Assembly (NCBI GenBank): GCA_001724265.1
Contig: MEDY01000102.1
Span: 1-64,000, forward strand
Reading direction: 5' to 3'
Length of the DNA stretch: 64,000 nucleotides
Origin: Rhizaria sp. SCN 62-66
Taxonomy: Eukaryota
The position numbers were made by a program, and so were the translations under genes. Shown in pieces: positions 18,647 to 51,365 of the stretch. The first letter of the stretch is position 1; every line of letters begins with the position of its first letter. The notes beneath the pieces were generated by a model, which was given only the letters and a program-made list of their open reading frames with translations, was not told the DNA's origin and did not search any database.

Positions 18647-20929
18647 TCACGGGTGGACAATGACGGCGCCCACAGGAGCGGCGGCGGCGTCGCGGAACGC
18701 CTGCCTGACGCGCGACAGCGGCACACGCTGCACCTGCACGGCGGGCACAAGGCCCTGCGCCGCGGCCACCAGCGCGTCCGAGAGCACGTGGCGCACGTCG
18801 CCCAGCCGCGAGGGCGCCAGCGCGTGCGCCAGCGGGCACAGGAACGCCACGCGCGCGCCGCGGAAGAAGAGCTGCGCCGAGCGCGCCGGGGTCAGCTCCA
18901 GGGCGCTGAGTGGTGGCGGGGGCGATGAAACACACAAAATGATTAGGTATGCGTGAGGGTGAGGGGTTATAGAGAGTTTAGCATTATCTTTAATATATAT
19001 AAACTTGATAACAGTATATATATCACGGGTTGGTTTGAATTTCGAAAACTAAGTTCAAAAGAAAAAGAAAGGAAACTGCATCGCGATGCCAAGAGGAATA
19101 GATAAGCGTGAACGTACCCATTTGCGACCACCCAGGTCGCGTGCGGCGCGAGACACGCAATAACGGTATCGGGTCCGACCGCGGGGCCCGCAGCGGCAGC
19201 GCGCGCGGCGGCGGCGGCGGCAGCGGTCACAGCCGAGCCACCGCCACGAATGGAGCCAGTGCTGCTGCTGCTGCTGCTGCTGCTGCTGCAGTTCGTGGCA
19301 CTAGAGGGCAAGTACGCCGACTCAAGCTTCGCCAGGCTAGCAGCGGTAGCGGCCGTACTCACGGACGCAGCAGGCGCCGCCACATGCGCCTTCTTAGCAG
19401 CACTAGCATCCACAGCTGCAGCTGCAGCTGCAGCAGCGGTTGCGTCGGCCGCAGTGGCATGCGCACCATTGCTCGCGCGCGCGTCGTCCTCATCCGGGTC
19501 CTCAAGTCCGCTGATGTCGAACGCACTCGCGCCGTCCGCACCGGCAGAGACCTTGCTGTCAGTCGCTCTACCAGCAGGACGCAATTGCGCCTGCGACTGA
19601 GCGCGTGCCTGGGCCGCAGCGGCGACCGAGGCCAGCGCAGCGCGCGCGGCGGGCGACAGACTACTGTCCAGCGCAGCCGCCGCCGCAGCAGCAGCAGTCG
19701 CCACGGCCGCCGCATCAGCGTCTACTCTCGCATGCGCGTTTGCGGTAGCGCTCGCAGCGGCGGAGGCGGCGAGCGCGTCAAACAGTGCCGCGCCGCTCTC
19801 CGCGCTCACCGCCCCGTTGCCCGCGCCCGCACCGGCGCCCGCAGCGCCCGCACCGGCACCAGCAGCGGCAGCTGCGGCAGCGGCGGAAGATGTGGCGGCG
19901 GTCGTGGCGGCGAAGGCGGGCGAGGGTGCCGAGAGGTCGACGATGAGGTCTGCGCCCAGCCCCGCGGACTCGGCTAGGACGACCGCCGCGAGGTCCGTGG
20001 CGCGCACATCAACGGCGCGCGCAACGGCGGGGCAGTCGGAGAAGAGGTTGAGCGCGGCCGAGGACGCGACGGCGACGACGACGCGGCAGCGCAGGCGTGC
20101 GGCGAGCAGCGGCAGTAGGGTGTCTGCGCCCGAAGGCGGCACGATCACCACGACAAGGCTGCCAGGGCGCAGGGACGAGAGCTGGTACAGCGCGGCGTAC
20201 GCGCGCAGGGCCGGCCACAGCAGCGCGGCTGCTGAGTCAAACGACAGCGCGAGCGCGGACGACGACGATGACGAAGATGAGGAAGTGGAAGAAGCTGCAC
20301 TCGTACGAGAAGTGGTGCCTGCGTCAGAGAACGAAAACCCTGTCAAATTGTTGCTGGCATTGCTCGCACTAACGGCCAACGCGCTATTGCTGGAGCTGCT
20401 GCTATTGGTGGTCGAGGCGGACACGGCGGAGAACGCGGAGGGAATGGGCGTGACGTAGGCGGCCGGGACGCAGGCGAACTAGCCGAGGCCGCCCGAGTGC
20501 GACTCTGCGGCCGGCGACGCAAGGGCAACCACGCGCATGCCGGGCGTAAGGTCCACAACGTCGGCGCCGACCGCGGCGACGGTGCCCGCAAAGTAGAAGC
20601 CGCCGACGCGCGGCGTGTCGGGCGAGGCGGCGGCGCGTGCGGGGGTGAAGGGGAGAAAAGCGCCCTGGCGGTGGTCCAGGTCGTCGGGCGTCAGCGCGCA
20701 CGCGTGCACGCGCACGATAACGTCGCTGGGGCCGCAAGTGGGCACGGGGTGCTGTGTATAAGGTATATCGAAACAAAACAGAGATGGTGGTGAGGTGCTT
20801 GAGTGATGCAAACAGGAGCAGTGAGATTGAAGCAAAGGAGAAGAGGGTGCGTACCGTTGTCGAGTACTGGAGCTCGTCATTGTAGCTGGTCAGCACTGCA
20901 GCCTGCATAAACTGCAATGACGCAGACAT
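18647..20929 (-). CDS. CRYZL1: Quinone oxidoreductase-like protein 1 (MDR family), about 655 aa (exons 20929-20855, 20751-19118, 18905-18647), with an internal in-frame TAG at 20481-20479
   Basis: VIVRVHACAL, FAGTVAAVG.DV...PG.RVV, LRAYAALY.L..LRPG, ESAGLGADLIVD, IACLAPHATWV and LELTP..S..LFFRGA.VAFL follow the CRYZL1 order on both sides of the TAG. Terminal stop is TGA. Confidence 0.8.
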
Positions 20930-21488: not shown

Positions 21489-24400
21489 TCAGTTCAGCTT
21501 CACGTCGGCCGGGTCCGCGACCGCCCCGTTGGCGGCACCAGCGGCGGCGGCGGGTTCGTCAGTGGCGGAGCCCTCGGCGGCGGCGATCTGCTGGCTCCAC
21601 AGCGCCGCGTACTTGCCGTCGCGCGCAAGCAGCTCGTCATGCGTGCCGCGCTCGATGATCTTGCCCTGCTCCAGGACCAAGATCTGCTCAGCGTGCATCA
21701 CAGTGCTCAGACGGTGCGCGATGACCAGCGTCGTGCGGCCCTTCTCCAGGGAACGCAGCGCGGCCTGTGAACAAGAAAAAACAATGGGAAGATCATAATA
21801 TAATGTTACGTGAGCTAAGTCAATAAGTAAATACGAGTTATATACCCAAAATACAGTTTCAATACAGCAATACGTTTTGAATGAGATGATATAGCGGACT
21901 ATTTTGTTCGCAGCGACAACGTACCTGGATGCGCTGCTCGTTGAGCGTGTCGAGCGCGGACGTCGCCTCGTCGAGCAGAATGATCGGGGGGTTCTTCAGC
22001 AGCGCGCGAGCGATCGCAACACGCTGCTTCTCGCCGCCGGACAGACGCAGCCCGCGCTCACCGACCTTGGTCTCCCACTTGTCCTTGAGCGAGAGGATGA
22101 AGTCGAGGATCTGCGCGTCGCGGCACGCCTGCTCGACCTCCTCCATCGTCGCGTCGAGCCGGCCGTAGCGGATGTTGTACAGCAGCGTCTCGTTGTACAG
22201 CACGGCGTCCTGCGGCACCGACGACAGCGCCTGCCGCAGGCTGTGCTGCGTAACCTTGCTCGTGTCCTGGCCGTCGATCAGAATGTGCCCGCCAGTGGTG
22301 TCGTAGTAGCGGAACAGCAGCTTGCCGATGGTGCTCTTGCCCGCGCCCGTGGTGCCCACCAGCGCCGTCGTCGTACCCGGCGCGACGGTGAAGGACACGC
22401 CGTCGAGCCCGCGCCCGCTGCGCTGCTCGGGGTACGCGAAGCAGACGTCGCGGAACTCGATCGTCGCGCCGTTAGCGGGGTCCGTGAGGCGGAGCTCGGT
22501 GGCGTCGGGCGCGTCCTTGACGTCCTGCTTCACGCCCAGCAGGTCCAGCAAACTGGTCATGTCAGTCAGCGACTGGATCACCATGTCAAACACAGTGCCA
22601 AGGAATGACAGAGGGGTGAAGAGCTGCACGACGTAGGCGCTCACGGCACTGAAACGGCCGATTGAGAGCTCGCCGCTGGCGACCTTGGCACCGGCGACAA
22701 ACAGGGCCAGCAGCAGGCACATCTGGATGATGAAGCCCTGCAGAGTGTTCAGGAACGCAAGGGAGTACTGCGTCTTGACGTTGTATGCCTGCGGAGTGAG
22801 ATGGAAAAACAAGAAACATCAAACATATGTGAGCAAACGAAAAGAGTTGAATCTAAATCAAGATTCAAGACACCGAGAAAGAGCATGATTGGTGCAACGG
22901 TAAAATCGGACGTACCTGGTACTGCTTGATGGCATCGACGTAGCGTCCTTTCTCGAACTCCTCGTTGGAGAAGGCTTTTGCGGTCTCGTAGTTAATGAGC
23001 GAGTCGGCGGCCAGCTCGTGGTAGAGGTTGTCGTACATGTTGGTGCTCCGGCGGATGACCTTGCGCCACTTGGTGAGCTCAAACGTGCTGCAGAGGTACG
23101 CGGAGATGTGCACGAGCACGATGACCGACAGCAGCGGCTCGCGGAACACGGTCAGGAAGATGATGAAGACGACGAAGCACTCGACAATGCACGGCAGCAG
23201 GTACAAGAACAGGTACGTCACCACCGTGTCGGCAGCCAAGATGCCGCGGTCCGAGCTGCGCAGCACGGTGCCGATCTTCTTGCTGACGTGCCACTGTAGC
23301 GACAGCGAGTGCAGGTGGCTGAAGGTGTGCTGTGCGAGCTCCACGAACGCGTGCTGCTTCACCTGGAGGTAAATCGCGTTCTGCAGCTGCTTCAGCAGAA
23401 TCGAGCCGAAGAGGAAGCCGCAGTACAGCGACAAGTAGCCGTACGGCGTCGTCTCCTCGCTCGTCAGCTGGTCAACGGCCATGCCAATGAAGAGTGGCGC
23501 GATGATTGAGAAGACCTTCGACGCGACAAGCGCGGCCCAGGTAAGCGCGACCTTGACGCGCGGCATCACCCCCTCGGGCCAAAAGTACGGCCGCAGCAGC
23601 GTCGACAGCTCGCTGTAGCGCCACGCCTCCTTCTCCGCCCGCGCGCGCGCGGCGGCTGCGTGCTGCAGCTCAACCAGCTCGGCGGCCTCCACGCGCCGCG
23701 CCTCGCGCGCCTCGTGGTCGTGCAGCGCGTTGCCCGACAGGTGCCGCGCCTCAGCCGCCGCGCGGAGCCGCGCCTCGTCGTTGGCCGCGAGCCGCTTGGA
23801 GCGCGCCTCCAGCTCGGGCTCGGGGCCCGTGCCCCACTTGTCGGGAATGTGAGGGGCGAGCATGACGGCGCCGGCGCACTCGGCCGCGCAGCACAGCGTC
23901 GTGAGCAGCAGCAGGAACGTGTAGCCGCCGTTGGCGCCCGACCAGTCCCACACGACGAGCTTGCAGATGAGCAGCAGCAGCGAGATGAGCGTGACCCAGT
24001 ACGCGCTGATGGGCGCCCAGCGCGACGCGGAGCCCTCGTAAGTGACCGAGTAGAGGAACCAGAAGAAGACGGCGGCGCGGGCGAGCACAACGAAGAACAC
24101 GTCGAAGAGCGCGGTGCCCATTTGCCAGTGCGTGAGTTCATCGCGGCCCATCGACGCCAGGTCGAACCCGTTGATCGAGAGGTAGATGAGCGTGAAGAGG
24201 AAGAGCTCGCCCGAGACGACGTAGCGCGCATAGGTCCAGCGCTGCGTGAACCGCTCGCGGCACTCAGTGATAAACGCGTCGTCCACTGCGTTCGGGTCAG
24301 GCTTGTTCGCGGGCGCAAAACTATCTCCGGAGCGCGGCGACGGGGCGTTCGAGTGCGATTGCAACTGTGACTGCGCGTGTGCGCCGCCGGACTGCGCCGG

Positions 24401-24727
24401 GGAGGTCGCAGAGGAGGACGCGCGCGAGGACGCTTGCGGCAAGTAGGCCGACGAGGGCAGCGAGCCGCGGAACGACATGTTGGTGTCGGCGCGGTTCAGC
24501 GATGACGGGGTTGAGCCGGTGCGCGGCTGACCCTGCGCGGCGTGGTGGCCGGCACTGTGGCCGTTGGTGTTGTGGCCCCTGCTGTGGCCGGCGTTGATCG
24601 AGTGCGCGGGGGCGGCGGCGGTGGGGGAGGGTGCGGTGGCGTCGTCGTCCTCTTTGAAGACGGCGTAGTCGGCCTTCTTTGACCCCGCGGTGGGTTTATG
24701 GGAGCTCTGGCTCCCGTGAGACGCCAT
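21489..24727 (-). CDS. ABCB6/HMT1-type half-size ABC transporter with an extra N-terminal TM region (exons 24727-22916, 22788-21925, 21764-21489)
   Basis: [37 protein letters not shown], Walker [10 protein letters not shown], signature LSGGEKQR, Walker [11 protein letters not shown] and IAHRLST. Stop is TGA. Confidence 0.92.
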
Positions 24728-33587: not shown

Positions 33588-35846
33588 ATGCTGTCCAAGG
33601 CCCGGCTCTTCGGCAGTGCGCTTGCGCGTCATCCTGCGCCTACCACTGCGCGTCGCGGGATGGCTACCGCCATAATGAACGTCTTTAATCAAGGTACGCG
33701 TCCTCTCTACACTCGCTCTTGCATCTGCGTTCGTCCCAATAACCACTTCCCCACACGCATCATCACTCACACTCACGGTCTCTCTCACGCCACTGCACCG
33801 TCCCGCTGCCACGACAGACGTTAAGACGATCCAGCGCGAGCGCGCCGCGCTTAAGGCCACGGGCGACGACTTTGGCTACATGCGCGACGAAATCTCCCGC
33901 CGCCTCCTTGATCGCCTCGCGTACGTCACACTCCTCAATATAGTATCAAAATGCAATATCTTGCAAGACAATATCATCGTACATGTATCGTGTGTCTATG
34001 TGTATTGCAATTACCTGTTTCAGATTACGCGCCTATGTTGCTATTTATGTTCATCTGCAACTCTCTGCACTCATTCCCCCTAAATCTTTTTTTTTTCTCA
34101 CAACTGTTGATGTTGTTCCCCCGTGTTAGCTTCGTGACCAAGACGTACCCTGTTGTGGTCGACCTTGGCTGCGGCAACGGCAACCTGGGCCGCCTCATCG
34201 CCTCGCGTGCGCTCGCCCGCGCCCAGCGTCCCCCGGCCAACGCAGCCGCCGAGGCCGCGCTGCTGGCCAAGCTCAAGTCTGACCCTAACAACCCGTCGGC
34301 GACGGAGTTCGAGCCCACGCCCGAGGAGACGCAGGAGTATCTGCGCATCTTCTCCGAGTTCTCGCTGCCCGGCGTGCGCGAATTCGTCCAGGTCGACTGC
34401 GCGCCCACGCACGTCGCCACAGCGCACTCCGCCGTCGCAGACACCATGGCCAGGCTCGCGGAGGTCCCCGGCGCCGTCGTGCCGCCTCCCGCCGCGCCCG
34501 CCGCCAAGGCGTCCTCTCTGTTCGGCTCGCTCTTCGGCGGCGGCAAGGACGCTGCTGCTGCTGCGGACGCAAGCGGCGTCCCCACGCTCGAGAGCTCGGC
34601 GCTGGCGCCCGCGCTGCTGACCCCTGGGGTGCCGCTTCGCGCCGCGGCCTCGAACGTGGCACAGGTCGTCTCGGCAACGGCGCCGGACGCCATCGGCGGC
34701 GCCGCCAACGCCAGTGCCGCGGCGGTTGTGGGCGACGGCGACAAGGTTTTTAACGTGTACTCGGCGACTGCGCCGCTGGGCACGATCCCCATCAAGCCTA
34801 ACAGCGCGAACCTCATCACGTCGGTGCTGGCCATGCACTGGATCAACGACCTTCCCGGGTACTTCAAGCAGGTTATCGACGCGCTCGCGCCCGACGGCGT
34901 CTTTATTGGCGCGCTTTACGGCGGCGAGTCGCTGCGCGAGCTCCGCTCGTCGTTCGCCATCGCTGACCTCGAGCGCATTGGAGGGTACGCAACACAAAAT
35001 ACGATATATAGCAACAAATCGATCGTTGAATTCACATATGCGTGAAATTTGATTAAGATTTATTATTGAACCATGTCTTCGTTGTTGCTTTTCGTTCTGT
35101 CTCACCGTGTTCACGTGTTCTTTGTTGTTGGTTTTTGCTTTGTTGTGTCCAGCGTGATGCCGCACATGTCCCCGCTGACGCGCAGCAACGACGTGGGCGA
35201 CATGATGAAGGCCGCGGGCTTCAACCTGCTCACCGTCGACCTGGACTCACTGCAGGTGCACTACCCAGACATGTTCACGCTCATCGAGCACCTCCACGGC
35301 ATGGGCGAGCAGCACGCGCCGCAGACGGGCATGGGCGGCGGCGCCGTCAGTCGCGACGTCTTTCTCGCTGCGAACGCGGCGTATGATCACCTGTACCGCG
35401 ACCCCGCCAACGGGCTGTGTCTCGCAACCGTCGACGTTGTCATGATGGTACGTCTCGTATTCTCTCCTTGCTCGAGACTGTGTGTTTTATTTTCCAATTC
35501 ACAGTCTTTATGTTTTTTTGCTTTTTGTTAACGACTTTCAAATGACTTGGTTCGCTCGAGTTACCGCACCCAGGACAGTTACGAGTCGGATATTCTCTTA
35601 ATTCTCAATTCACAATCCTAATTTTGCTATAACAACACAATTTTTCAATAATCTATCTTAATTTTCATCTCTATCATGCTTATTTTGTGTTTACCCGTTG
35701 CCATACAGATTGGCTGGAAGCCCCACGCGTCGCAGCCGAAGCCCAAGGCGCGCGGCAGTGCCCAGTACAAACTTGGCGAGGACGCCCCGATGACCGGCCC
35801 TACTAAGGCTGAGCTCAAAACCACGAGTGTCAAGCCCAGCGAGTGA
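33588..35846 (+). CDS. NDUFAF5: Mitochondrial complex I assembly factor NDUFAF5 (exons 33588-33693, 33818-33920, 34130-34984, 35153-35447, 35709-35846)
   Basis: Transit peptide, NVFNQ.VK.IQRERA, Y.RDEI..RL.DRL, VDLGCGNG, MHWINDLPG, L.ELRSS...A..ER.GG..PH.SP, L.GMGE and IGWKPH.SQPKP.ARGS. Stop is TGA. Confidence 0.93.
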
Positions 35847-36347: not shown

Positions 36348-39300
36348 TCAACCCTGCAGCACGTAGTCACGCGGCTTAATTTCTGCGCCCTCGAGCCACT
36401 GCGCGGACTCGAAATAGGAGCCCGTGAGGTTGCGGAAGCGCAGAATAGTCGCCACGAGCGCGCGCTGCATGCGCATCTGTCGCGCGCGCGCCGACGCGGC
36501 CACCGCGTTGCCGGCGCCGCCCGCTGTGGGGCTCTGCAGCTGCTGCGCGAGTCCCTCAGCGCCCTCGGACGCCGCGCCCGGGAGGATACCCGCGGCGACG
36601 GCGTCGGCGGCGGCGCCGTCCTCGTCGTCCTGGCGGTTGAGCAGGCCCTGGCCCGTGGTGCCGGCGAAGTCGTCCGCCACGGGCTTGCGCAGCAGCTCGT
36701 CCTGGAACGGCTTGTAGAGGCGCAGGTCGGGCAGCGACGGGTATGCCGCATCGAAGGCCTTCATCTGCGCCAAGCGCTCTTGCGGCACTGTGTCGGGGCC
36801 GGAGAGCTTGGCCAGCAGCTTCTTGCGGTGCTCGCGGCGCACCTGGTTCTCGCGCACGAGCTGCAGCAGCGTCTTGCCGCTGTTGGGGTCGGACCCAAGC
36901 TCGGCGATGTGACGCACGACGACGTCAATGAGGATCGGCAGTGCGACGGCGACGGCGATAGCGAACCAAACGGGACCCGACTGGAAGAGGCGGAAGATGA
37001 CGCCGTAGAGCGTGGCGTTGAAGTCAGGGAACACCGAAAGCATGATGGCGACGAGGACAAGCGTGACGATTGAGAAGACTATCGACAGCGCGTGTAGCAG
37101 AGTCACACTCGACATGTCCAGCACGATCAAGAACGTCGCCAAGAATACGATCGAGATGTACACGGCGGCAGCGACGGTGTAGAGCCCGTGGTCGCGGCCG
37201 TCCTTGTTGGCGACGTTGTCCACGGAGAGAGACACAAACGCCACAAAGAAGACCATCGCGGCGTGGCCAAACGCGCGGACGACCCAGATCACGTACTTGC
37301 GGCGAGAAAACAGCGGTTGCATGCGGAGCGAGCGGTACACCTCGGGGTTGTTCTCAAGCGTCTCGCGGTCCACCACGCGGTCCAACACGGCCAGGCACAT
37401 GATCGGCGCGGCCGTGAAGAGCACGTTGAAGAACTGGTACAGCGGCTCGTTGAACAGCTGCTGGCCAGAGAAGCCGGAGAAGAAGCCGAAGTAGTACATC
37501 GTAAGCGCGACGAGCGCGGCCTTGTAGAAGACGTAGTAGATGAGGAACGACACACGCGCGTAGCACCACGCGCCGTGCACGAGCAGCAGCGTGTGCAGGT
37601 GCGAGAACTGCGCGATCGCGTAGTCGGCCGCCTTGACCGCGGCCGCGCCTTCGACGCCAGACACGCCGACGCCGACGTGCGCGGCCTTGATCATGAGCTC
37701 ATCGTTCGCACCGTCGCCGATCGCGAGAGTCACGGAGCCCTCGAACTCGCCCACACGCTTGCGCGCGGCCTCGATCTCGCGCTCCTGCGCCTCGACCAGC
37801 TGCGCCTCGAGCGCCGCCAGCTCAGCGTCGGTCACGCCGCCAGGCACGGCATCACTGACACTCCCGTTCCCGTTGCCATTGCCGTTGCCGCCGCCCGCGT
37901 CGTGCGCGGTGGCGTTGGCGGCGCGGCGCGCGGCGCGGGCGGCCTTGATGCGGCGCACGCGCGTCTCGAGCGAGACGGCGTCCTGCGCGGTGTGGTGCCA
38001 CACCTGCGGGTGCTGCATCGTCACCTTGCAGCGCTCCGAGAGCTCGCGCACCATGCGCTCCTTCATCGGCGGCTCCGCGCCCGCGAAGACGACCGACTTA
38101 CACGCCGACGCAAGCTTAAAGAAGTGGTACTGGAGCGCCGTGCGCTGCGCCTTAGAGACGGACAGATCGAGCGTCGCGCGCGGCGGCGCCGACAGCGACG
38201 GCGCGGGCGACGACAGCGACGGCGAGCCCATCGCGGGCGACGGGAGCGCAGGGGAGCCCAGCGACGGCGGCGCGGCCGGGGACGCGAGCGGGCCCGCAAT
38301 GGTGGAACCCGGCGTGCTGTAGGCGCCGCCCACGGCGGGAGACGCCGCGGAGGCCGCGGCGGCGGCGGCGACGCGGTCTGCGCGCGCCATGAGCCGCACG
38401 GGCGGGCAGATGACGGCGAAGGCTTCGCGCGTGACAACGAGTGACACAGGGAGCCCGCGCGCGCGCATGAGCTCGGCCGTGCGCAGCGACTGCATGATGT
38501 CGATGGCGACGGCCTCGAACTGCGAGACCTGGACCTGCTTCATGAAGGCCTGGAACTCGCTGAGCGTGAGCCGCCCGTCGTGGTCACCGTCGTACATATC
38601 GAACAGCAAACGCATCGAGTGCGCCGCGGGGTGCTCCGTCGGCAGCGTCGCCGGGCCCGCGCCGGCGCCAGACACGCCGCTGTTGCCGTGGGCCGCCGCG
38701 GAGCTGGTGTTGTCGTCGGAGATAACGCCCAGGCCGGAAAGCATGACGATGAGCGCGTCGAACGACAGCGTCACCACGTTGGCGGGCCCCGCGGTCGGGC
38801 TGCCAAGTCCGCCGCTGCTGCTATTGTTGCCGTTACTCGCGTTCGTGTTGTTAAAGCGCGTGGTGAAGTAACTGAAGAGCTCGTTGAGCACGGCGTCGTC
38901 GCCGGCCAGCCGCGCCCACTCGCCGGACACTTCCAGTACGCGGTTCTCTTTGTACGCCGCCTCGACAAGCTCCAGCGAGTCGCCCCCAGCGCGACCCCCA
39001 CCGGCCGCGGTGCCGGCGCCGTTGCTGGCGCCGGCGACTGCGGTGATGTCGGGCATCATGTCTGGGTCGATGAGGCAGCACGCCATGGCGATGTTCTTGG
39101 CCGTGTCCTTCTTGTCGCCCGTCAGCATCCACACCTTGATGCCCGCGCGCAGAAAGTCCGAGATGGCCTCTGGCGCGAGGTCCTGCAGCTCATCCTCCAG
39201 GCCCGACGCGCCCAGCAGACACAGCCCGGCAGAGCGCTCGATGTCCGTCTTGAGCTCGTCGAGCGCATCCTTGGCCTTCTTCTCGCTCTCGGCGTCGTTG

Positions 39301-42300
39301 GACCGGCGCGCCGCGTTGTCGAGCGCCGTGTACCGCGCCTCCCACTGCGCCCACCACGCCTTGGTCTGGCGCGCCTCGGCGACAAGCATGGAGCGCAGCC
39401 CGGCCTTGCACATGCGCTGCATCGACGACTGCAGCGTCGACCAGCTCTGCGCCGGGTTCACCAGCAGCGGCTCGATCACGGTGTCCTGGCCCTTGCACAT
39501 CACGTACACTTCGCCCTCGGGCGATGCCGGCCGGAACGTGCCCGCGCCGGGGGTCTCGAGCACGCGCTCGTACACAACTGTCACGCGGCGCCGTGCCGAC
39601 GTGAAGTGGAACGTCGCCAGCTTGCGGTACACCTCGACCTCAACGGCGTCGCCGCCGGCAGCAATCGCGTCACCTGCGGCAGCCGCGGCAGCGCCGGCAA
39701 AAACGGAGCGCGCGGGCGCGGGCGAGAGCGACGACGACGACGCGGCGGCGGCCTCGGCGGCGGCGGAAAGCGTGCGCACGCCGTCCTGCTCCGCCGGCGC
39801 CGCGAGCGCGAGCGCGGGGGCGGCGGCGGCGGCGCGGGGCGAGGCGGCGCCAGACGCGGCAGCGGCGGCCGAGTTGGGGTCGATATGCAGGTAGTAGATG
39901 GACAGGTCCGAGGGGCTACGTTCCTTGAGCGTAAAGCCGACGGAGCGCGCGAACATAGCCAGCGCGAGCTCGTCGGCCGACTCGGACGCGTACTTGAGCT
40001 CGCCGTGTTTGTCAATAAACGGGGTCAGCGTGTTAGACAGCGCGCAGTTGACCAAGTACCGCCGCAGCAGCATGCGCTGCCGTGCGTCGACTTCCTCGGG
40101 CGCTGGCGGCGCGTTCAGCACTCGCATGTGCGGCTGCAACTGCAGCGAGCTGCGGCGGCCGCGCGCCGCACGGCGGCGCTCCCGGCGCTCGGCGCGCGCG
40201 GCCTCGGCCTCGCTGCCGCTGAGCCCCGACGCGGACGCAGAAGCGGACGCAGACGCAGACGCGGAGCCGGAGCCCGCGCCCTCGGCGTCGGAGCCCAGCC
40301 CGGAGACCGTGGGCGCGGCCCCTACGGCGCCGGCAACAGCGCCGGGCGCGGGTTCGTTGCGGCCCCAGAGCACGTTGCGCAGCGCCGTCGAGTGCAAGAA
40401 CGACTCTGCGCCGGTCGACTGGTTCTCCTGCACGTGCGCCGCCAGCTCGGTCCAGTACGGCGCCGGGCGCGGCTTGACGGGCCGGCCCTGGCGGCGCGCC
40501 TCGCGCTCGTCCTGGAAGTCGAGCTCGCGGGCCGCGGCGCGCTTGGACATCTCCGTCTCCATCTTGCCGAAGGACATCACTGACGCCCACTCGGCAACGT
40601 CCGCCGGCACCGCACCTGCGGTGGCTGCGCCGGGGGCCGCGAGGGACAGAGAGCGCAGCGACGCGCTGGCGTTGGGGTTGGCCGACTCCGGCGCGGCGCC
40701 GGCGGCAAAGAGCGTGCGGCGCATCGACTCGGGCATGTGGCGCGGGTGGGTCGAGCACGACGGCTCGGTGCGCGCGGACGGCACGTCGAGCACGAGCGCG
40801 TAGCGGAACTCCATCTTGTTCTTGGTAAGCGTGCCGGTCTTATCGGTGAAGACGTACTCGATCTGGCCCAGGTCCTCGTGGATCGTCGACTTGTTGCAGC
40901 GCACGTGCTCGTCCTTCTCTGGGGAGTACATCGCGTGGTCCGACTCGATGAGGTAAGAGAGGAACATCTTGACGAGCTCGGACGTGACGAGCAGCGAAAT
41001 GGGCACCATCTGCGACAGAATAATGAAGAACGAAAAGAAAGACAAGATACCCGTCACCGCCGGCGCCGAAGCGAAGCGGATGTACCAGATGTGGCTGTGG
41101 TAGTGGTGCCAGATGCCCGCAAAGAGCCCCGCAACGAAGCACAGCGTCGTCTGCAGCAGCAGCATGTACAGCAGGAAGCGGTCTACAAGCTTGAAGATGG
41201 CCGTGCGCTTCAGATCGGGCTTCTGGTACCATTTGCGCGTGAGGCGCGACATGACGACATTTTGCCGGATCTTGGTGTCGGTGCCAGTGTAGACGACAAG
41301 GCCGAACGCCCAGTCCGTGTTGCGCAGCGTCGTTTCGCGCAGCAGCAGCACTTTGTGGTCCAGCTGCGCCACCACGGGGCCCGCGTTGCCGGCGCCGCTG
41401 GCGCCGCTGCCGGCGCCGACCGCGGGCGGCAGCGAGAAGCGCGCGTCGCCACCGTTCGCAACAGCACCGCCAGCGCCAGCCGCTGCGCCAGCGGCAGAGC
41501 CGGCGGTGCTGCTGCTGTTGGGCTGGTTGCGAAAGTCGGCGCGCCAGAACTCGTCGTCGCCGCGGCGCGCGTCCTGGACGTTGTAGAGCTCGAGTTGGCC
41601 CGAGAAGCGGTCGAGCACGCCGTCGGGCGGGTCGGACACAAGGCGGCAATTGAGCCGCTGCAGCGTCTTGGGATGGTTGAACAAATCATACGTCTCGCGC
41701 ACAGCGAGCATGATCTCCAGCGACGTCTCGCCGTTGAGCGACTTCTTGTCGATGAACGCCTGGCCGTTGCGCGCGTCCGAGGACGACAGAAGGATCATGT
41801 CGGCAGGCACAGCCTCGTCTTGGCGCACCATCACGAGGTCGCCGACAGCGATGTCGCCGGACCGCTTGAGCTCGAAGTTGCGTTTGTCGGCGTTGTAGAC
41901 CATATAGGGCGTCGAGCTCGTCTTGTCGTCGGCGCGGTGCCGCGCGATGTCCTCGACGGCAGCGCGAACGGCCGACACAAACACGATGAAGGCGAGCGGC
42001 ATGTAGATGGTCGGGTAGCCCTGCGTGGTGGAGATCTGTGGGATAATCTGGAGCAGACCGATGAAGAGGAAATACAGGTTCGCAAGCTCGGAAAACTGTT
42101 CGAAGAGGTTCTTGGGCAGGAACGACCAGGCCGTGTAGCGAGAGGTGACGACGATGTTGTTGCAGAACAGGTCCGAGAGCTCAGCGGGCACGGCGCCGTT
42201 GCGGACAATAACTTCGCGCGCGTTGGGGTCGGCCTCGGCGTCAGCGTCGTCGTCGTCGCTGCTCGCCGCAGCCTCGCGCCGCCGCCGGCCGCCACCAGGG

Positions 42301-42596
42301 GTGCGCGGCGACGCGGGCCCGCCTGGCGAGTCCAGCACTGTGACTGTGGGAGCGGGCAGCGGCGAGAAAGCCGCGGTGTGGCCGTCCTCGTAGTCGCCGT
42401 CGTCGTCCGTGGTAATGCCGGAGAGCAGCGCGGCGTCGTGCGAGTCCAGGTCGTGTGCGACGGTGCTGGTGGGGAGCTCCGGGACCGGGGTGGCGGGCGC
42501 ATCCGGTGCAGTGCCGCCGCCCAGCGAGAGCGCGGGCAGGCCCGGGCCGGGGGAGCCGTCTTCCGTGCGCTTCGGGTCGGAAGCGTCGTCGGACAT
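36348..42596 (-). CDS. P4-type phospholipid-transporting ATPase (flippase), about 2082 aa, with an EF-hand insertion
   Basis: FCNN.V.TSRYT..SFLPKNLFEQF, LNGET, PISL (TM4), DKTGTLT, FTSARRR, GLEDELQ, WMLTGDK, AIGDGAND, LLLVHG.W.Y.R and C-terminal TM helices. Stop is TGA. Confidence 0.93.
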   Translation of the reverse strand: MSDDASDPKRTEDGSPGPGLPALSLGGGTAPDAPATPVPELPTSTVAHDLDSHDAALLSGITTDDDGDYEDGHTAAFSPLPAPTVTVLDSPGGPASPRTPGGGRRRREAAASSDDDDADAEADPNAREVIVRNGAVPAELSDLFCNNIVVTSRYTAWSFLPKNLFEQFSELANLYFLFIGLLQIIPQISTTQGYPTIYMPLAFIVFVSAVRAAVEDIARHRADDKTSSTPYMVYNADKRNFELKRSGDIAVGDLVMVRQDEAVPADMILLSSSDARNGQAFIDKKSLNGETSLEIMLAVRETYDLFNHPKTLQRLNCRLVSDPPDGVLDRFSGQLELYNVQDARRGDDEFWRADFRNQPNSSSTAGSAAGAAAGAGGAVANGGDARFSLPPAVGAGSGASGAGNAGPVVAQLDHKVLLLRETTLRNTDWAFGLVVYTGTDTKIRQNVVMSRLTRKWYQKPDLKRTAIFKLVDRFLLYMLLLQTTLCFVAGLFAGIWHHYHSHIWYIRFASAPAVTGILSFFSFFIILSQMVPISLLVTSELVKMFLSYLIESDHAMYSPEKDEHVRCNKSTIHEDLGQIEYVFTDKTGTLTKNKMEFRYALVLDVPSARTEPSCSTHPRHMPESMRRTLFAAGAAPESANPNASASLRSLSLAAPGAATAGAVPADVAEWASVMSFGKMETEMSKRAAARELDFQDEREARRQGRPVKPRPAPYWTELAAHVQENQSTGAESFLHSTALRNVLWGRNEPAPGAVAGAVGAAPTVSGLGSDAEGAGSGSASASASASASASGLSGSEAEAARAERRERRRAARGRRSSLQLQPHMRVLNAPPAPEEVDARQRMLLRRYLVNCALSNTLTPFIDKHGELKYASESADELALAMFARSVGFTLKERSPSDLSIYYLHIDPNSAAAAASGAASPRAAAAAPALALAAPAEQDGVRTLSAAAEAAAASSSSLSPAPARSVFAGAAAAAAGDAIAAGGDAVEVEVYRKLATFHFTSARRRVTVVYERVLETPGAGTFRPASPEGEVYVMCKGQDTVIEPLLVNPAQSWSTLQSSMQRMCKAGLRSMLVAEARQTKAWWAQWEARYTALDNAARRSNDAESEKKAKDALDELKTDIERSAGLCLLGASGLEDELQDLAPEAISDFLRAGIKVWMLTGDKKDTAKNIAMACCLIDPDMMPDITAVAGASNGAGTAAGGGRAGGDSLELVEAAYKENRVLEVSGEWARLAGDDAVLNELFSYFTTRFNNTNASNGNNSSSGGLGSPTAGPANVVTLSFDALIVMLSGLGVISDDNTSSAAAHGNSGVSGAGAGPATLPTEHPAAHSMRLLFDMYDGDHDGRLTLSEFQAFMKQVQVSQFEAVAIDIMQSLRTAELMRARGLPVSLVVTREAFAVICPPVRLMARADRVAAAAAASAASPAVGGAYSTPGSTIAGPLASPAAPPSLGSPALPSPAMGSPSLSSPAPSLSAPPRATLDLSVSKAQRTALQYHFFKLASACKSVVFAGAEPPMKERMVRELSERCKVTMQHPQVWHHTAQDAVSLETRVRRIKAARAARRAANATAHDAGGGNGNGNGNGSVSDAVPGGVTDAELAALEAQLVEAQEREIEAARKRVGEFEGSVTLAIGDGANDELMIKAAHVGVGVSGVEGAAAVKAADYAIAQFSHLHTLLLVHGAWCYARVSFLIYYVFYKAALVALTMYYFGFFSGFSGQQLFNEPLYQFFNVLFTAAPIMCLAVLDRVVDRETLENNPEVYRSLRMQPLFSRRKYVIWVVRAFGHAAMVFFVAFVSLSVDNVANKDGRDHGLYTVAAAVYISIVFLATFLIVLDMSSVTLLHALSIVFSIVTLVLVAIMLSVFPDFNATLYGVIFRLFQSGPVWFAIAVAVALPILIDVVVRHIAELGSDPNSGKTLLQLVRENQVRREHRKKLLAKLSGPDTVPQERLAQMKAFDAAYPSLPDLRLYKPFQDELLRKPVADDFAGTTGQGLLNRQDDEDGAAADAVAAGILPGAASEGAEGLAQQLQSPTAGGAGNAVAASARARQMRMQRALVATILRFRNLTGSYFESAQWLEGAEIKPRDYVLQG

Positions 42597-43361: not shown

Positions 43362-46300
43362 ATGAGCGTTCCCACGGCCGTCGCCGAGCTCCCGGGCCTC
43401 ATTTTCGAGGTCCGCGTGGACCTCTCGCACGCTCCCGTGCCCTCTGTGCAGCACTACAAGCGCTCCGACACGGTGTTCCTCACCGTCTCGCTCGCCGAGT
43501 CCGTGCCCATGCTGCACTACACCATCAAGTCGGACCGGCACCGCGAGGCGCGCCAGGCGCCTATCATCTCCATCCCGGCCGCCAACATCAAGTCGGTTGA
43601 GGCCTCGTGCGAGCTCTCTGACGTCTTTTCGCTCGAGTTTACCGGCTCTGGCGCCAACCGCGCGCACACGTACCGCATTCACCACCTGCTCACCGGCGGC
43701 GGCGGCGCGCGCTCGCTCGACCGCGCGGCGCTGCTCACGCTGCTCCAGTGCGCTGCCCGTGGCTCTGCGTACGCGCGCGCCTTCGCGGCCCACAACTTCG
43801 GCTTCCCGCAGCGCGATGTGCTGCTCACTGAGGCCGTCAAGAAGCGCGGCTCCGTGCTGGGCAGCTCGGATCGCGTGCTCATTCTCACGCCCCACGCGCT
43901 GCTCGTCCGCGAGCGCCCCGCGGACGTATTTCCCACGGCCGCCTACCCGCTCTCGGCCGTCTCCGTCTCGGCAAAGGGCAGCGCCGACCTGCGCGTCGAT
44001 CTGCCGTCATCCGACTCACTCGCTCGCCCCGCCGCCGCCGCCGCCGAGGCCGCGGGCTCTAGCTCGGGCTCTGCCGCGCTCGCGGGCGTCAAGCTGGAGC
44101 CGCACTCGCTGCTCTTCGCCTTCCCCGAGCCGTCCGTGCGCGACGACTGGCTCGCTGCAGTCGCCGGCCTCACGCGCACGCTGCTGAACACCGCCGCGCA
44201 CACGCGCTTCGCCCGCGGCGAAGCCGGCGCCGTCGCGCACGCCAACGGCCCACTCGAGGCGCCCGGCGCCGGGCTGTGGACAGTGGAGCAGGTCGTGCAC
44301 ACGGTCGACGCCAAGCTCGCCGCGCGCGCCGCCAAGGCCGCCTCGAAACAAGCCGCCGCCGCGACGGCCGCCGGCATCACTGCTGCGGCTGCGGCTGGCG
44401 ACGCGAGCGTGGCCGCGACCGAGTCTGCGCGCGCCGCCGCGGTGAGCCCGACGCGCTCCTCGCTGTTCCCGCAGCAAGCGCCGGCGCAGAACCAGTTGCA
44501 GCAGCAGCTGCTGCAGTCGCAGTCATCCTCGTCCTCCTCGTCCTCGTCTTCTGCGACGGCGACGGCGGCGGCGGACGGCGCGGCGCTGGCCGCGGGCGGC
44601 AAAGGCTCGCGCAGCAAGATTTTCAGCATGCTGGGCACTGACGAGGCCGGTCTGTCGCGCAACCCGGAGGAAGTGAGCCGCGAGTTCCGCTCCCGCATGC
44701 GCGCCGCCGTCGACTCGAGCGGGCCTGCGCCAGACGCGTACTACCGCGTCCGCAGCGGCAGCCGCGGGCCCGCGTCCGCCGCGGACGGCGGGTCCGCGGC
44801 TGTGCGGTCCAACTCGGCCGCCAGCGCGCACAGCAACAGCACCGCCACCGCGGGCGGGGGCAGCAGCGCGGCCGCGGCGCAGCGCGACATGCTGGCGATG
44901 CTGGGTCCTCTCGTTGGCGGCTCCTCCGAGGCCTCCCAGGCGCGCAGCAGTAAGGGCAGCAAGCCCGCACGCGTGGCCACGCGTACCTCGTCGCCGCCCC
45001 CCGGCCACGGCCGCAATGGATCGCCGCAGCAGCAGATCAGGTCGACGGGCCCCGACGCCGGGAGCGCACTGTACGTGGACCCGGAGCGGCTGTACGTCAC
45101 CGCGGAGCGCAAGAAGCGCCAGGAGCGTACCACCGACAGACTCACCGCCGCCGAGCTCGCCGCCTCACCGTCTAACAGCAGCAACGGCAACGGCAGCGGC
45201 AACGGCAGCGGCAGCGGCAGCGGCGCGGGCACACCAGCGAGCGCCGCTAACAGTGCGAACAGAAGCCAGGGTGGCGTACGGCACAGTGTGCTGCCCTTTG
45301 CGCTGGCGTCCGACCCCGAGGCCGCGCTTACGGGCTCGCCGCTCGGCCCCTCCGCGCGCTCCATCTCCGGCGCACACGCCCACAGTCACTACGGGGCTCG
45401 CGGTCACCACGCTGCTCACGGTCACTCTGCCCACGGTCACCACGCTGCCCACGGTCACCACGTGGGTCCCGTTGCGGTCGCGACGGACGCGTCGGGCCTC
45501 GTATACACGCTGCCCAGCGCGCCCGCGCACGGCACCGCGCGCGACGCGCGGTCTCCTGTCGCCGTGGTCCGTAACAGCCGCTACGTCGAGGGCCGCGCCG
45601 CGTCCGTGCTGCCCATGTCGCCCCACAACAACGGCCACGGCCACGGCTACGGTCACCAGCAACAGCAGCGGGTGGGCACGGTCGTGGGCACGCGTGGCAG
45701 CGTGATGACGAGTCCGCGCGCGGGCAGCCACGGCGCCAGCGGCTTCGGTGCCGCGCCCATCACGCCAACCGCCGTGAGCTCCACCGGCACCGGCGCAGGC
45801 GCCGGCGCAGGCGTCCGCGGCAGCGTCGTCGCCAGCGGCGGCGGGAGAGGCCTGCGCAGCAGCAAGGGCGCGCGCGGCAGCCTCGCTATGAGCACGGCCA
45901 GCGGCGCCGGCGCCACTGCGGGCACGGAGAACGGCAGCGACGCCGGCTCGTCCCCGAAGCAGCGGCAGCGGCGCCGAGCGCGCGGACAAGGGCGGGACTC
46001 GGTCGACTCGCCCTCGGCCGCGCCGCTGTCGGCCGCGTCGCTCGCCACGGGCACCGACTGGACCAGCGACCTCGCAGCCGCCGCCGCAAACTCTCCCAGC
46101 ACGCCCGGGAGCGCGGCGGAGACCGTGGCGGCGCAGGGCCCGCGGCGCAGCGTGGCCGCCATCGCGTCCGCCGCGGCCGCCGCGCGCGCCGTGTCGCCCA
46201 ACGGCCAGGGCCAGGCGTGGTGGGCCGCCGCCGCCGCCGCTAGCCCCCGCGCGGGCGGCGGCGTCGCGCCCGTGTCCGTCCCCGACGACGGCGACGACAG

Positions 46301-49300
46301 CGGCGACGGCAGCGACGGGTCCGACTGCGTCGTCGTCGTCGATAACATCCCGCAAAACGCCGCCGCCGTCGCCGCGGCCGCTGCGGCAGCGTCGGCGGCC
46401 GCCGCGGCTCAGGCCAAGGTCGCGCGCCCGCTCGTCTTCTCGCCGCCCGCCGCCGCCGCGGGTAACGCCGGCTTTGTCACCACCCCGGTCACGTTTAGCG
46501 TCCCAACGCCTGTGTCTCTGTCTGCGCCTGCACCTGTGGCGCAGGCGATGCCCGCGCCTGCTCCCGTCTCCGTCACCGCGCATGCGCTTGTGCCCGCGCC
46601 TGCGCTTGTGTCGGTCACTGACGTCTCGGTGGTGTCCCCGGTGCCCGCGCCTGTCGCGGCCGCCAGCGCACCCATTGCAGCAGTCCATGCCGCACCGGCA
46701 AACGTGTTGCCGGTGCTTGCTGTGGAGGCGCCCGTGGGCGCGGTGCCCGAGTCGCGGCGCCGCAGCAACGCGCCGCTGCTGCCGCTGCCGCCCACTCCGC
46801 CCACGGCGCCCGCCGCGCCCGCCCCTCAAACGCAGACGCAGACGCAGACTCTCGCTTTGACGGGCACGCAGTCGCAGACAGAGCCGGCGCAACTGCCAGT
46901 CCCGCCGCGCCCGGCCCGCGCCCCCGCCACAGCCACGGCCACAGCCTCGTCCGTCGCTGTCGCTGCGACGATGAGTGCGGGCGTGGGTGTGAACGACGGC
47001 GCCGCCATGGCGGGCGAGACCAAGGACGGCGATGAGGCCGCCGCCGCTGCGTACCCGCGCACGTCTCCGTCCCCGTCGCCGGTGCCGTCGTCGCAGGCGC
47101 CCTCGCCGCCGCTCCCGCTCTCGCGCGCTGCCTCCAATGTCTACAACAGCAACAGCAGTAGCGGCAGCGTTCTGAAGCCCAGCGCCGTGGAGCTGGCGCT
47201 GTCTGCGCAGTCTGGCGCCGGCGCGGTCCTCGTCGCGCCCAGCGGCGCCGCGTACCCAGCGCCCGCCGACGTCGCCGCCGCGCTCGCCGGCACGCCGCTC
47301 ATCGCCGCCAACGTCGCCACTGCCAGGTCCGGCTCCGGCTCCGGCTCCAATGCGCAGAGCACACAGCGCAGCGCGACTGCTGCGGCAGTTGATGTGATTG
47401 TCGCAGCGAGCGTGCCGTCGGGCCCCGAGGCGCCGCTGCAGAGCTCGGCCAACCCGTCGAGCTCCGGCGTTGCCAGCAACGGCGCTGTCGACGGGCCTAA
47501 GGTTATCGCACGCGGCCGCACGCTGACCACGTTCAACGCCAGCGGCGGGAACGGGTCGATCGGCGCACACCATGCGACCAGCGGCGCCGCCGCAGCCGCC
47601 GCAGCCGCCGCGGCCGCCGCGGTCGCGATCAACGCCGGCGCGCACGGCCACCAGTCTGGCCGCGCGTCCCACAGTGCGCATCATGCAGTGTACGCGCAGA
47701 GCGCGCCCGAGGTGCCGGTGTCGCCCGCGGCGCCGCGCTCGCACTCAGGCATGATGCCGCCCGCGCCCGCGCGCCGCATCGTCCCCACGCCCGCGCCCGC
47801 GGCTTCGACTGCGCCCGTGCCGGTGCCTGAGGGCGATGATGATGACGACGATGAGCCGCCGCCGCCGCCGCCGATGGACGACGACGACGATGACGATGCG
47901 CCGCCGCCGCCGTGCCCGCCCAGCGACGACAGAGAGCCCGACTCTGCGGGCAAGGCGAACGCGGCCGCTGTTAACGTCGACGAGCATGATATCGACCTGC
48001 CTCCGCCGCCGCCCCCGCTCCTCACCTCGCCCGTCGCCGCGCCCACGCCCGTCGCGCTCGCTGCCGCACCGCCCAAGCCTAACCCGCGTCCCTCGCCCGA
48101 GCTCGCTGTCGCCACCGCTGCCGCCCCGCCTACCGCCACTGCTGCCGCTGCTGCGGACACTGTGTCTGCGACGGGTGCAGTCGCTGCGGAGTCGGAGCCG
48201 GAGGACTTAGTGGTGATGACCTTCGTGCTGCCGCCCAACTGCATTCTGCGGCCCGACCTCGCCGCCGCCCCAGCGCGCCGCCGCGGGCCCGCGCGCCCTG
48301 CCGGCCCCACGCCGACTGAGGAGCAGCCGCTGCTGCCCTACCTGGTGTCACCTCCGCCCAACGAGCCCGCGCCCACGGTCCGCGTCTTCACACTCATCTA
48401 CCCCGCCGAGGCCGCCACCGCCGCCGCCGCTGCCGCAGCCGCTGCCGGAGTCGGAGCCGCGAGCAGTAACAACCATGAGAACGCCGCGGATGGCGCTGGT
48501 GGCCGTTTGCCGCCGCTGCCGAAGCCGTACGTGCTGGACACGCGCACGCGCGTCGACTTAGGGCAACTGCAGCTGGCGCTGCCGCTGCCGGTGTGCGACC
48601 CGCGCGGGCGCTCGCTGCACCTGGTGATGCCGCCGCCCGGCGTGGCTCTGCCCGAGAACTTCCTCCTGGCGTCGAACGGTGTCATCTACTGCTCCGTCGG
48701 CGGCTCTGCCGAGGACGAGGCCGACTACGAGCTCGAGGTCAAGGGCACAATCCCGGGCGCCGAGGAGTCGCTCGCGCTCTATTTCACCGAACAAGAGCTC
48801 GCCACCGTCGCCAGCAACGCCGCGGCCGCCGTCGAGCAGGCCCAGGCCGAGGAGGAGGCCTGGGCCATGGCCGAGGCCGCTGCGGAGGCGGAGGAGGCGC
48901 GTGCGATCGCGGCCGCTGAGGCTGCGGAGGCCAAGGCCATTGCCGACGCCAAGGCTAAGGCCGACGCCAACGCGGCGGCGCGCGCCGCCGCCGCTACGTC
49001 TGCCGCCGCTAAGGCCGCCGCGCAGCGCAGCTTCATCAACGCCACCGCCGCTGCTGACGGCGACGACGACGACGACGACTTCGTGCCGCCCCCGCCCTCG
49101 GACCCCGAGTTCGATGGCGCCACAGCGGCGGCCAAGTCTGCCGTGTCGCCTCGCAGCGGCGCCGCGGTGCCCGCGCGCCCGCCGCGACCCGCGTCCACGC
49201 CCACCGCGGCCGGCGCGAGCGGCGCCATGGCCTACTCGCCGTCGGACTCGCCGCTCTCGCGGCCGGCGCGCCCGCCCAAGCCCGCTGGCACGGTGGCGCA

Positions 49301-50531
49301 GTCGCTGTCGCAGGCGCGCCTTGCTACCGCCGTGGCCGCGAGCGCGGCGGGCGTCGCGCTCGTCGCTGCCAGTGTGACTGGCGCTGCCGACGACGATGAC
49401 GACGCACCGCCCGCGCCTCCGTCTGACGACGCCGACGCCAACGCCGCGGCCGCTGCTTCTGGCGCCACGTTTGAGCCCGAGCCCATGTCCCTGAGCACGG
49501 TACAGTCGCACCCGCACTCGCAGTCGAGCGACTCGTCCGCCCGCTCGTCGCCGCCCCCCGCTTCCACTTCCGTCTCGGCCTCGGCCGCGGCCGTCGCCGC
49601 CGCAGCCGCCGCGCGGTTTGCGACTGTGGCGCTCGAGGGCAGTGCGCAGCCGATGGGGCTGGTGGCGCTGAGCACGCTGCCGCCCGCGGCGCCGCTGTCG
49701 GCGCTGCGCGACGCGCTCGAGGACGAGGTCGACGACCTGCCCGCGGACTGGGTGTTTCTGCTGCGCGGCGTCAAGGTCGGCCGCAAGCAGGAGGCCAAGC
49801 TTACGCTCGCGCACCTCCACGAGGCTGCCGCGGACGACGCCGCCGCCAACGCTACAGCTGCTGCTGCCGGTGCCGGTGCGTGTGAGCCCGCGGGCGACGT
49901 CGTGCGCGTCGTGATCCGCGACACGGCCGCTGCAGCCGCGGCCGGCGCGGGCGCGGCGACGCCCCTCGTCGCGTCCACGCCCGCGGCCGCCGTGCCGCGC
50001 GCGCCGACGCCGCCCCCGATGGACCTCTTTGGCGACTCGCTCTTCGGCCCCGGGCCCATTGCGCCCGCCGGAGGCTCCGCCGTTCGCGCGGGCGCGGGGG
50101 CGGGCTCGCTCGCCAGCGCCGCCGCGGCCGCCGCAGCCTCGCGCACCGCCGCCAGCGCCGGTAGCGCGGCTAGAGGCCCGTCGCGCCCCGCGCCCGGCGC
50201 TGGCGGGGCCCCCTCGCGCGCCGCGCCCCGCGCCGGCGTCCAGGGCCGGCGCTGCAGCAGCCTGCTGGTCGCGCAGGGCTAGGCCGCGGCGCCCGTGGAC
50301 CTGATGTCGGCGCTTAAGACCTTCTCCAGCGGCGCGCGCGCGCTACGGCGCACCTCAGTGCTGCCCGGCTCGCGCGCCATGGCGCCCGCGGACCAAAGCA
50401 AGGGCATGCTGGACAACATGGTCGGCGGCGAGCAGAACATGCATCGTGCGCTGCTGCGTGCCATGGCGGAGCGCAGGCCAGCGATGGTGATCGAGAACGA
50501 CGATGTCGCCGACGAGGAGTGGGATGACTAA
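43362..50531 (+). CDS. Large putative Arp2/3 nucleation-promoting factor (PH domain, low-complexity and Pro-rich regions, C-terminal WH2-C-A), with an internal in-frame TAG at 50280-50282
   Basis: PH-like region (VLLTEAVKKRG...RVLILT...FAFPEPSVRDDWLAAV) and poly-Pro/acidic blocks. Directly after the TAG and in the same frame: DLMSALKTFSSGARALRRT (WH2), MHRALLRAMAERRPAM (C) and ENDDVADEEWDD (A). Terminal stop is TAA. The start codon is uncertain. Confidence 0.75.
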
Positions 50532-51365
50532 GTCACCTAAAAAGTGAATTTACCCCCACCAGGAGTGGCTCCAGAAGATTATTGTCTCAGAATCTGACTA
50601 GAGGTGACAAACAGACTTGCTCTGACTGTATGTGAGTCGAACGAGCTGTGTGTCAGATATAATAATTACTTTAACGATTAAGATTTGTGTTTATGTATGC
50701 ATCATGTTCGTGATTCTGGTGAGCATCACATGAGCAGCATTCGAATAACCGCTTTTTGGACATCTGAGATAAATACAATAATACGTGTTATGTTGTGATT
50801 TCAACATGCTAACCTTATTGCCCGCTCAAATGCCGCACGATATACTTAATTTGATTGATTGTTACAATTGCTCCATCTGGAAGATGTTTTCACCAATCAC
50901 TCGTCGGCACAAGCCTTATCTCTCAGAAAAGTGCCAAATGTGACTCTTTCCGCGACATTCGCGAAAAGCATCGCCTGCATGCGCGACATTATCTTGGCGG
51001 CTGAAACCCCCTTGCGGCGAACGTCGACTCCGCTCACGTCTTTTAAGCAGCCCGCGAGTGCGCTGAGAAAGCCATGCTGGCACAGCCGAGCGCGATAGGA
51101 CTTGATGACGGTGAGGTCGAGTGGCTGACCTAAGTACACCAGGTGTTCTAGCATTGAGTTAACAAAATGTGTGTTCAAACAAATATTTGTATATACAGAG
51201 TCGAAGAGCGCAATTGGCGCCATTTGTTGTACATGTCTGTAATGAGCTATTGTAATCTATCAATCTATCCAGCAGTTGTGAGCGTCAGTCGCACAATCGC
51301 TGCTCTTGAGTGTTCCGGCACAAAAGTAGCGACGGGTGGCGGTTAGTTAGAGCACACGTCGCTGT

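Follow-up and report, generated by a model that had tools for sequence, protein, structure and literature searches.

In-frame TAG in a putative nucleation-promoting factor gene and in an oxidoreductase-like gene: a probable rare sense codon

The window, a 64-kb stretch of DNA analyzed at its full length, carried genes typical of a eukaryote, for a CCT subunit, EMG1, a P4-ATPase, an ABC transporter, and a RabGAP, as well as flagellar genes, among them TPH, FOP, and dynein light chain. Exons were GC-rich (GC3 ~0.9), while introns and intergenic DNA were AT-rich. Ten predicted introns with a clear GTACG or GTATG donor had lengths of 149-468 nt, nine of them falling at 149-261 nt, and a GC content of 0.34-0.43 (examples in Table 1); the RabGAP gene model assembled from predicted introns stayed in frame. 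Donors were strikingly uniform, reading G|GTACG or sometimes GTATG. A tRNA scan of the 64-kb window yielded no tRNA genes, and no Rfam family matched in it. Near-identical DNA was present in metagenome runs of several studies on bioreactors and wastewater, and the source would be an uncultured, flagellated, intron-bearing eukaryote of such metagenomes.

Among the other genes, Pfam placed an EF-hand (residues 1328-1355) as an insertion within the cytoplasmic part of the P4-type phospholipid flippase [36348-42596 (-), 2082 aa], and in the ABC transporter [22865-24727 (-)] a match to the MENTAL (cholesterol-capturing) domain preceded the transmembrane domain. PG_binding_1 and YkuD (L,D-transpeptidase) domains are typically bacterial; an ORF at 10403-11491 (-) combined both with a GC-rich, exon-like composition and may represent a horizontal acquisition by the eukaryote.

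The sequence-only reading of this DNA had proposed that a long ORF ends at an in-frame TAG and that the same frame then continues into a module of the type that activates Arp2/3. The underlying layout was confirmed: from ATG 43362, the ORF ran for 2306 codons to ...SSLLVAQG, followed by TAG 50280-50282, 82 GC-rich codons in the same frame, and TAA 50529-50531. AT-rich DNA began only after this TAA, the next 150 nt having a GC content of 0.41. Poly-Pro stretches bordered by acidic runs were found in the main ORF. Read as one gene, 43362-50531 would encode a nucleation-promoting factor (NPF) of 2389 residues, in which a PH-like N-terminus is followed by long regions that are of low complexity and rich in Pro, then by a conserved ubiquitin-like-looking domain and a C-terminal WH2-C-A module. 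Between this gene and the dynein-light-chain gene, high-depth contigs from all four runs that were compared covered a stretch of ~170 nt (50960-51127), and every one of them carried 11-15 differences; the stretch resembles a repeat or a conserved element that other organisms have as well. A 108-aa ORF (-) overlapping this stretch was without a significant Pfam match.

Table 1. Positions of the features of the two TAG-bearing genes, and example introns, in the 64-kb window.
Feature	Position	Strand	Basis or remark
Main ORF, NPF-like gene	43362..50279	+	Single exon, Ala/Ser/Pro-rich; colinear homology to P0006
N-terminal conserved region, probably tandem PH-like	43473..44201	+	Homology to P0006 N-terminus
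Conserved 'DDLPADWVFLLRGVKVGRKQE...VVIRD' domain, possibly ubiquitin-like beta-grasp fold	49623..49925	+	Homology to P0006
In-frame TAG	50280..50282	+	~6 codons before WH2 helix, in non-conserved linker
82-codon tail, putative WH2-C-A module	50283..50528	+	Same frame as main ORF
WH2 motif LMSALKTFSSGARALRRT	50301..50354	+	Published WH2 pattern, linker relaxed to 6-10 residues
C (central) helix MHRALLRAMAERR	50439..50477	+	Hydrophobic i, i+4, i+8, then RR
Acidic tail with Trp, DDVADEEWDD	50499..50528	+	Pattern match, stop directly behind
TAA, real stop	50529..50531	+	AT-rich sequence behind
Quinone-oxidoreductase-like (MDR family) exon before TAG	20482..20754	-	Pfam ADH_N
Second in-frame TAG, inside ADH_N	20479..20481	-	Glu/Gln position of GG(L/Y)(A/S)(E/Q) motif
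Exon continuation behind TAG	19118..20478	-	453 open codons, cofactor-binding-domain homology
Last MDR-like exon	18647..18905	-	After predicted intron 18906-19117; ends with TGA 18647-18649
Example introns	13476-13703, 14370-14541, 15640-15788, 34985-35152; 21765-21924 (-)		

An exhaustive HMMER search of 1.84 billion representatives with the last 700 residues, read through the TAG, gave six matches at E ≤ 0.001. Two of these were the window's own pieces, three contained only the ubiquitin-like-looking domain, and one, P0006 (1322 aa), was the only non-self homologue in this collection to extend beyond that domain. P0006 and the window protein were colinear over three blocks, comprising an N-terminal block (E 8e-25), a middle block (2e-08), and a 'DDLPA..FL..GVK..RKQE' domain (1e-13). 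The extreme C-terminus of P0006 was an uninterrupted WH2-C-A sequence, ...LLNEIRGFKATNLKKL...LRAQLAARRAKVHDEQDADWD, and its last 62 residues gave the best local alignment to the tail behind TAG 50280 (z 4.4; 1 of 2000 shuffles scored as high). Fusion of the module to the end of P0006 and alignment of the tail at that same place indicated that the module belongs to the gene family and is C-terminal in it. Word-based protein searches returned nothing for the N-terminal domain, only the window's own pieces for a 136-aa query centered on TAG 50280, and only itself for P0006. When P0006 was used as protein query against genome contigs, nothing was found, and two metagenome-contig scans and one exact 47-mer scan recovered no relatives of the NPF locus.

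The conserved N-terminal region shared 28% identity with the N-terminus of P0006, which itself showed a weak Pfam PH match (E 0.026). An AF2 model of the region had low confidence (pLDDT 53) and consisted of two beta-sandwich-plus-helix units; the region is probably a tandem PH-like domain. For residues 1-346 of the NPF protein, no Pfam family matched at E ≤ 1, including the WH1, SCAR, and WASH models. The 'DDLPADWVFLLRGVKVGRKQE...VVIRD' domain was 48% identical to its counterpart in P0006. Its AF2 model, also of low confidence (pLDDT 61.5), gave no Foldseek hit at E ≤ 0.001; the best E was 1.0, and the top chains, although not significant, were mostly ubiquitin-like, and the domain possibly has a ubiquitin-like beta-grasp fold. 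Two to three tandem copies of this domain ('LPADWVF..G.PVGKKQE.K....IRD') also occurred in P0004, P0005, and P0007, which are small proteins of other metagenomes; no Pfam family exists for the domain, which may be an undescribed one of ubiquitin-like fold. The window gene and P0006 would together represent a type of WH2-C-A protein whose N-terminus is PH-like and which also contains a ubiquitin-like-looking domain.

Pattern matching recovered the WH2, C, and acidic-Trp motifs of the tail where the sequence-only reading had placed them. The WH2 pattern and the description of the C domain were taken from Kollmar 2012 (PMC3298513), in which the printed WH2 pattern has a 10-residue linker, linker length is variable, and the C domain consists of three large hydrophobic residues spaced by three and followed by an R/K doublet. 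With its linker relaxed, the WH2 pattern had a single match in six frames of 64 kb, which was the tail motif, with a linker of 8 residues. The C helix reads M-xxx-L-xxx-M..RR and fits the general description; the C pattern by itself is common, with 71 matches across the window, and carries weight only together with the other motifs. An acidic-Trp-stop pattern devised for this analysis matched once in the window (50511-50531), as did a composite W-C-A pattern (50301-50531), which combined our own version of the WH2 and C descriptions in that paper with a terminal Trp. A profile check of the read-through tail for WH2 (PF02205) was negative, with no Pfam match at E ≤ 1, and phmmer with the tail found no WASP-family chain among PDB chains at E ≤ 10. 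P0006 did not match the Pfam WH2 model at E ≤ 1 either, though its C-terminus is WH2-like by eye, and the WH2 model may therefore be insensitive here. By its motifs and one distant homologue, the tail is a putative WH2-C-A module, and from these motifs it would be expected to bind actin and activate Arp2/3. The window protein shares with the WASP-family NPFs described in PMC3298513 a Pro-rich region and, C-terminal to it, the succession of WH2, C helix, and acidic Trp-bearing end. Unlike them, it is very large (2389 residues), with a tandem PH-like N-terminus and a ubiquitin-like-looking domain before the Pro-rich linker; in the main text of the Kollmar 2012 survey (PMC3298513), 'PH domain' and 'pleckstrin' each occur 0 times.

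The tail also had the statistical properties of coding sequence. With a codon model trained without the NPF gene, it scored 0.37 log-odds per codon, compared with a mean of 0.48 (sd 0.24) for true sense windows, at most 0.02 for the other five frames of the tail, and -0.68 for the 100 codons behind TAA 50529. The polyA-RNA run X10 had contigs of this strain on 47500-49833 but none on 49834-50401, and in the same run a contig of a ~89%-identical relative covered 50402-50529 with 14 differences at a depth of 2.5; in the run labeled 'RNA?' (X5), a contig was found only at 50557-50708. Eight of the 10 listed differences between relative and tail were synonymous, the others being L>M and I>M, and four of the 14 were not displayed. 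Since the X3 contig (see below) was without the relative's variants, the relative is another organism rather than a paralogue. The predominance of synonymous differences indicates that the tail is under constraint.

The possibility that TAG 50280 was a base-calling error was ruled out by run X3 of another study, in which a 1493-nt contig across 49540-51032 showed 0 differences. In the public protein collection, a 75-aa ORF starting just behind the TAG (P0003) had been called on 7 contigs. A 178-nt contig from run X4 also carried the TAG but, with only 14 letters on one side of it, was not counted as bridging.

The window was scanned in six frames for further stops bordered by coding-like sequence, with flanks of 25 codons. 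Once frames antisense to genes with Pfam support, e.g. 30230 (-), had been discarded, one further case was left, TAG 20479-20481 on the reverse strand. A version of the scan with 12-codon flanks was rejected, as its three hits were spurious (two antisense of known genes and one AT-rich) and both real TAGs were missed. The second TAG lies in a quinone-oxidoreductase-like gene of the MDR family. With the TAG written as X, the Pfam ADH_N profile was matched over positions 1-103 of 104 (E 2.3e-11), while a sequence cut at the TAG matched only positions 1-62. PDB homologues aligned over X without a gap: opposite GGLG-X-FA in the window stood GGLAEFA in 5a3j, GAYAEYC in 4dup, GGLSEYA in 1tt7, and GGYSQKA in 5gxf. 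The residue facing the TAG was thus Glu in three of these four solved homologues and Gln in one, the last two being individually weak matches; His stood there in a fifth alignment, which was insignificant. The 453 codons behind the TAG aligned to VAT-1 and QOR over their cofactor domain, and the end of the last exon may resemble MDR C-termini. The ORF ending at this TAG (P0009/P0010, 88 aa) was found on 6 ENA contigs and 1 JGI contig.

Codon usage across the window was consistent with a very sparse use of TAG. The modelled genes comprised 11,410 sense codons, with two in-frame TAGs (~0.2 per 1000 codons) and neither TAA nor TGA in frame. The rarest ordinary codons in this set, ATA (4), TTA (4), and CGA (9), were in a range similar to that of the two TAGs. 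Were TAG freely interchangeable with CAG, ~35 occurrences would be predicted from the TTG:CTG ratio of 42:417, compared with the 2 observed, and 2 codons in ~11,400 do not amount to widespread sense use of TAG. Some 17 gene ends in the window consisted of 12 TAA, 5 TGA, and 0 TAG, in a sample that is small and in which 17290, 30813, 31773, and 57677 precede a donor-like GT and are possibly exon ends.

Both genes were coding-like and homologous to relatives on either side of their TAGs. The homologous, constrained tail and the position of the second TAG at a conserved Glu/Gln site indirectly support translation of TAG 50280. This part of the sequence-only reading is well supported, though by indirect evidence, and of its two suggested mechanisms, decoding at the level of the genetic code fits best; the other, a gene-specific switch for Arp2/3 activation, is disfavored for reasons given below. 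The second TAG in the MDR-like gene and the lack of TAG at ~17 gene ends make a rare sense codon the most likely interpretation of TAG. We consider it probable that the organism as a whole decodes TAG as an amino acid, probably Glu or Gln, and uses the codon rarely. Ribosomes would then read TAG as that amino acid and terminate at TAA and TGA, and TAG 50280 would specify an ordinary residue in the linker before WH2, with no role as a regulatory switch. The NPF-like gene would then be an ordinary, though very large, nucleation-promoting factor of undescribed architecture. More specifically, and only tentatively, UAG alone might be a Glu codon in a previously unrecognized eukaryotic lineage, at an incipient stage and with UAA and UGA as stops; at such a stage, UAG would have disappeared from gene ends and would so far have returned to coding sequence at only some two codons in 11,000.

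An unlikely alternative is that two independent, recent nonsense mutations occurred, whereby the NPF would have lost its WCA tail and the MDR-like gene would be dead, with downstream sequences that have not yet decayed. With a GC3 of ~0.9 and abundant NAG codons, most nonsense mutations would indeed yield TAG, use of TAG was otherwise nil, and the MDR-like gene looks diverged: its diverged nucleotide-binding motif and long low-complexity inserts mean that it could be a decaying gene. However, this scenario needs fixed alleles in 2 of ~20 genes of a single 64-kb window, and both TAGs were present in several assemblies from different sources or studies. The open frames behind the TAGs extended over 82 and 453 codons, compared with a chance expectation of ~70 at this GC content, the tail differed from its relative by ~2 replacement versus 8 silent changes, and TAG was not used at any gene end.

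Programmed readthrough confined to TAG 50280, by which most of the product would lack WCA and a smaller share would activate Arp2/3, is in our view a still less probable explanation. Readthrough that adds a functional C-terminal extension is known from peroxisomal targeting extensions, Drosophila kelch, and viral gag-pol, and the NPF-like gene resembles such cases in having an in-frame stop followed by a conserved coding extension. The TAG is located exactly between a Pro-rich linker and an effector module whose sequence is intact and constrained, and a stable GC-rich hairpin (-28.6 kcal/mol) is possible just behind it. The predicted structure was, however, no more stable than that of shuffled sequence (z -0.61 and -0.29), and the +4 base was G, as at most normal stops in the window. 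Unlike programmed readthrough, the locus thus offers neither a leaky context nor a stimulatory structure, and the same codon occurs inside the catalytic domain of another gene, which such readthrough leaves unexplained together with the lack of TAG at ~17 gene ends. The TAG in the other catalytic domain, the ordinary +4 G, and the absence of RNA structure beyond composition are what disfavor an Arp2/3 switch. Among the papers listed by a literature search linking stop codon readthrough to nucleation-promoting factors, none contained the readthrough term.

Repair at the RNA level, either by editing of UAG (e.g., U-to-C, giving the Gln codon CAG) or by removal of an atypical short GC-rich intron, appears highly improbable. 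Gln would suit the MDR position, as it does in one of four homologues, and frame-keeping GT..AG pairs are present around 50280, among them a candidate mini-intron of 45 nt at 50238-50282. These pairs span only 45-51 nt and are GC-rich, and the candidates show neither the G|GTACG donor nor the pyrimidine tract nor the AT-rich composition seen in predicted introns with a clear GTACG or GTATG donor. The surroundings of TAG 50280 are continuously GC-rich, unlike window introns, and an intron removing this TAG, which had been raised as an objection to its translation, is accordingly very unlikely. At the second TAG, splicing out of the codon does not fit, as homologues have one residue and no gap opposite it. 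Least credible of all is an artefact, that is, an error of base calling or assembly or a tail forming a small gene of its own from ATG 50304 onward, as the 75-aa ORF (P0003) called separately by prokaryotic gene callers might suggest: the X3 contig is independent and identical across the site, the module is fused in P0006, and the 21 GC-rich nt between TAG and ATG 50304 leave no room for a promoter where intergenic DNA is AT-rich.

If TAG is a rare sense codon, the organism would be comparable to lineages with UAG as sense and UAA and UGA as stops. In such nuclear codes, UAG encodes Leu in the rhizarian exLh and Gln in Iotanema spirale (PMC5304391), and Leu or Gln in phyllopharyngean ciliates (PMC11687900). 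As in these UAG-sense codes, the window has in-frame UAG in conserved genes and none at gene ends, with UAA as main and UGA as second terminator. Usage is far sparser: PMC5304391 gives 384 UAGs in 71 genes and 204 in 126 genes for described UAG-sense lineages, and with ~0.1 UAG per gene the window compares with 1.6-5.4 in exLh and Iotanema. It also differs from the described codes in that the genome is GC-rich (GC3 ~0.9) and that one informative position favors Glu over Gln; a change of UAG alone to Glu is not reported in the available portions of PMC5304391 or PMC11687900. An aphelid-type code with TAG as Gln was rejected because, in aphelids, UAA and UAG are both reassigned (PMC5304391) and the organism studied here stops at TAA. 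Of the papers listed by a search on UAG reassignment in activated sludge protists, none dealt with such an organism, as judged by title or abstract.

Such a code would have consequences beyond the two genes. Nuclear stop-codon reassignments are, to our knowledge, rare, and only in few of them do UAG and UAA part ways. If confirmed as such, a GC-rich lineage outside the ciliates that does not terminate at UAG and barely uses it as a sense codon would provide a snapshot of an early or weak reassignment, a stage about which the codon-capture and ambiguous-intermediate models disagree. Gene callers that apply the standard code would cut proteins of this organism at TAG, and the effector part of an actin nucleation factor would be among the things thereby hidden. 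The pieces are indeed found apart in the public protein collection, as P0002 and P0003 and as P0009 and P0010.
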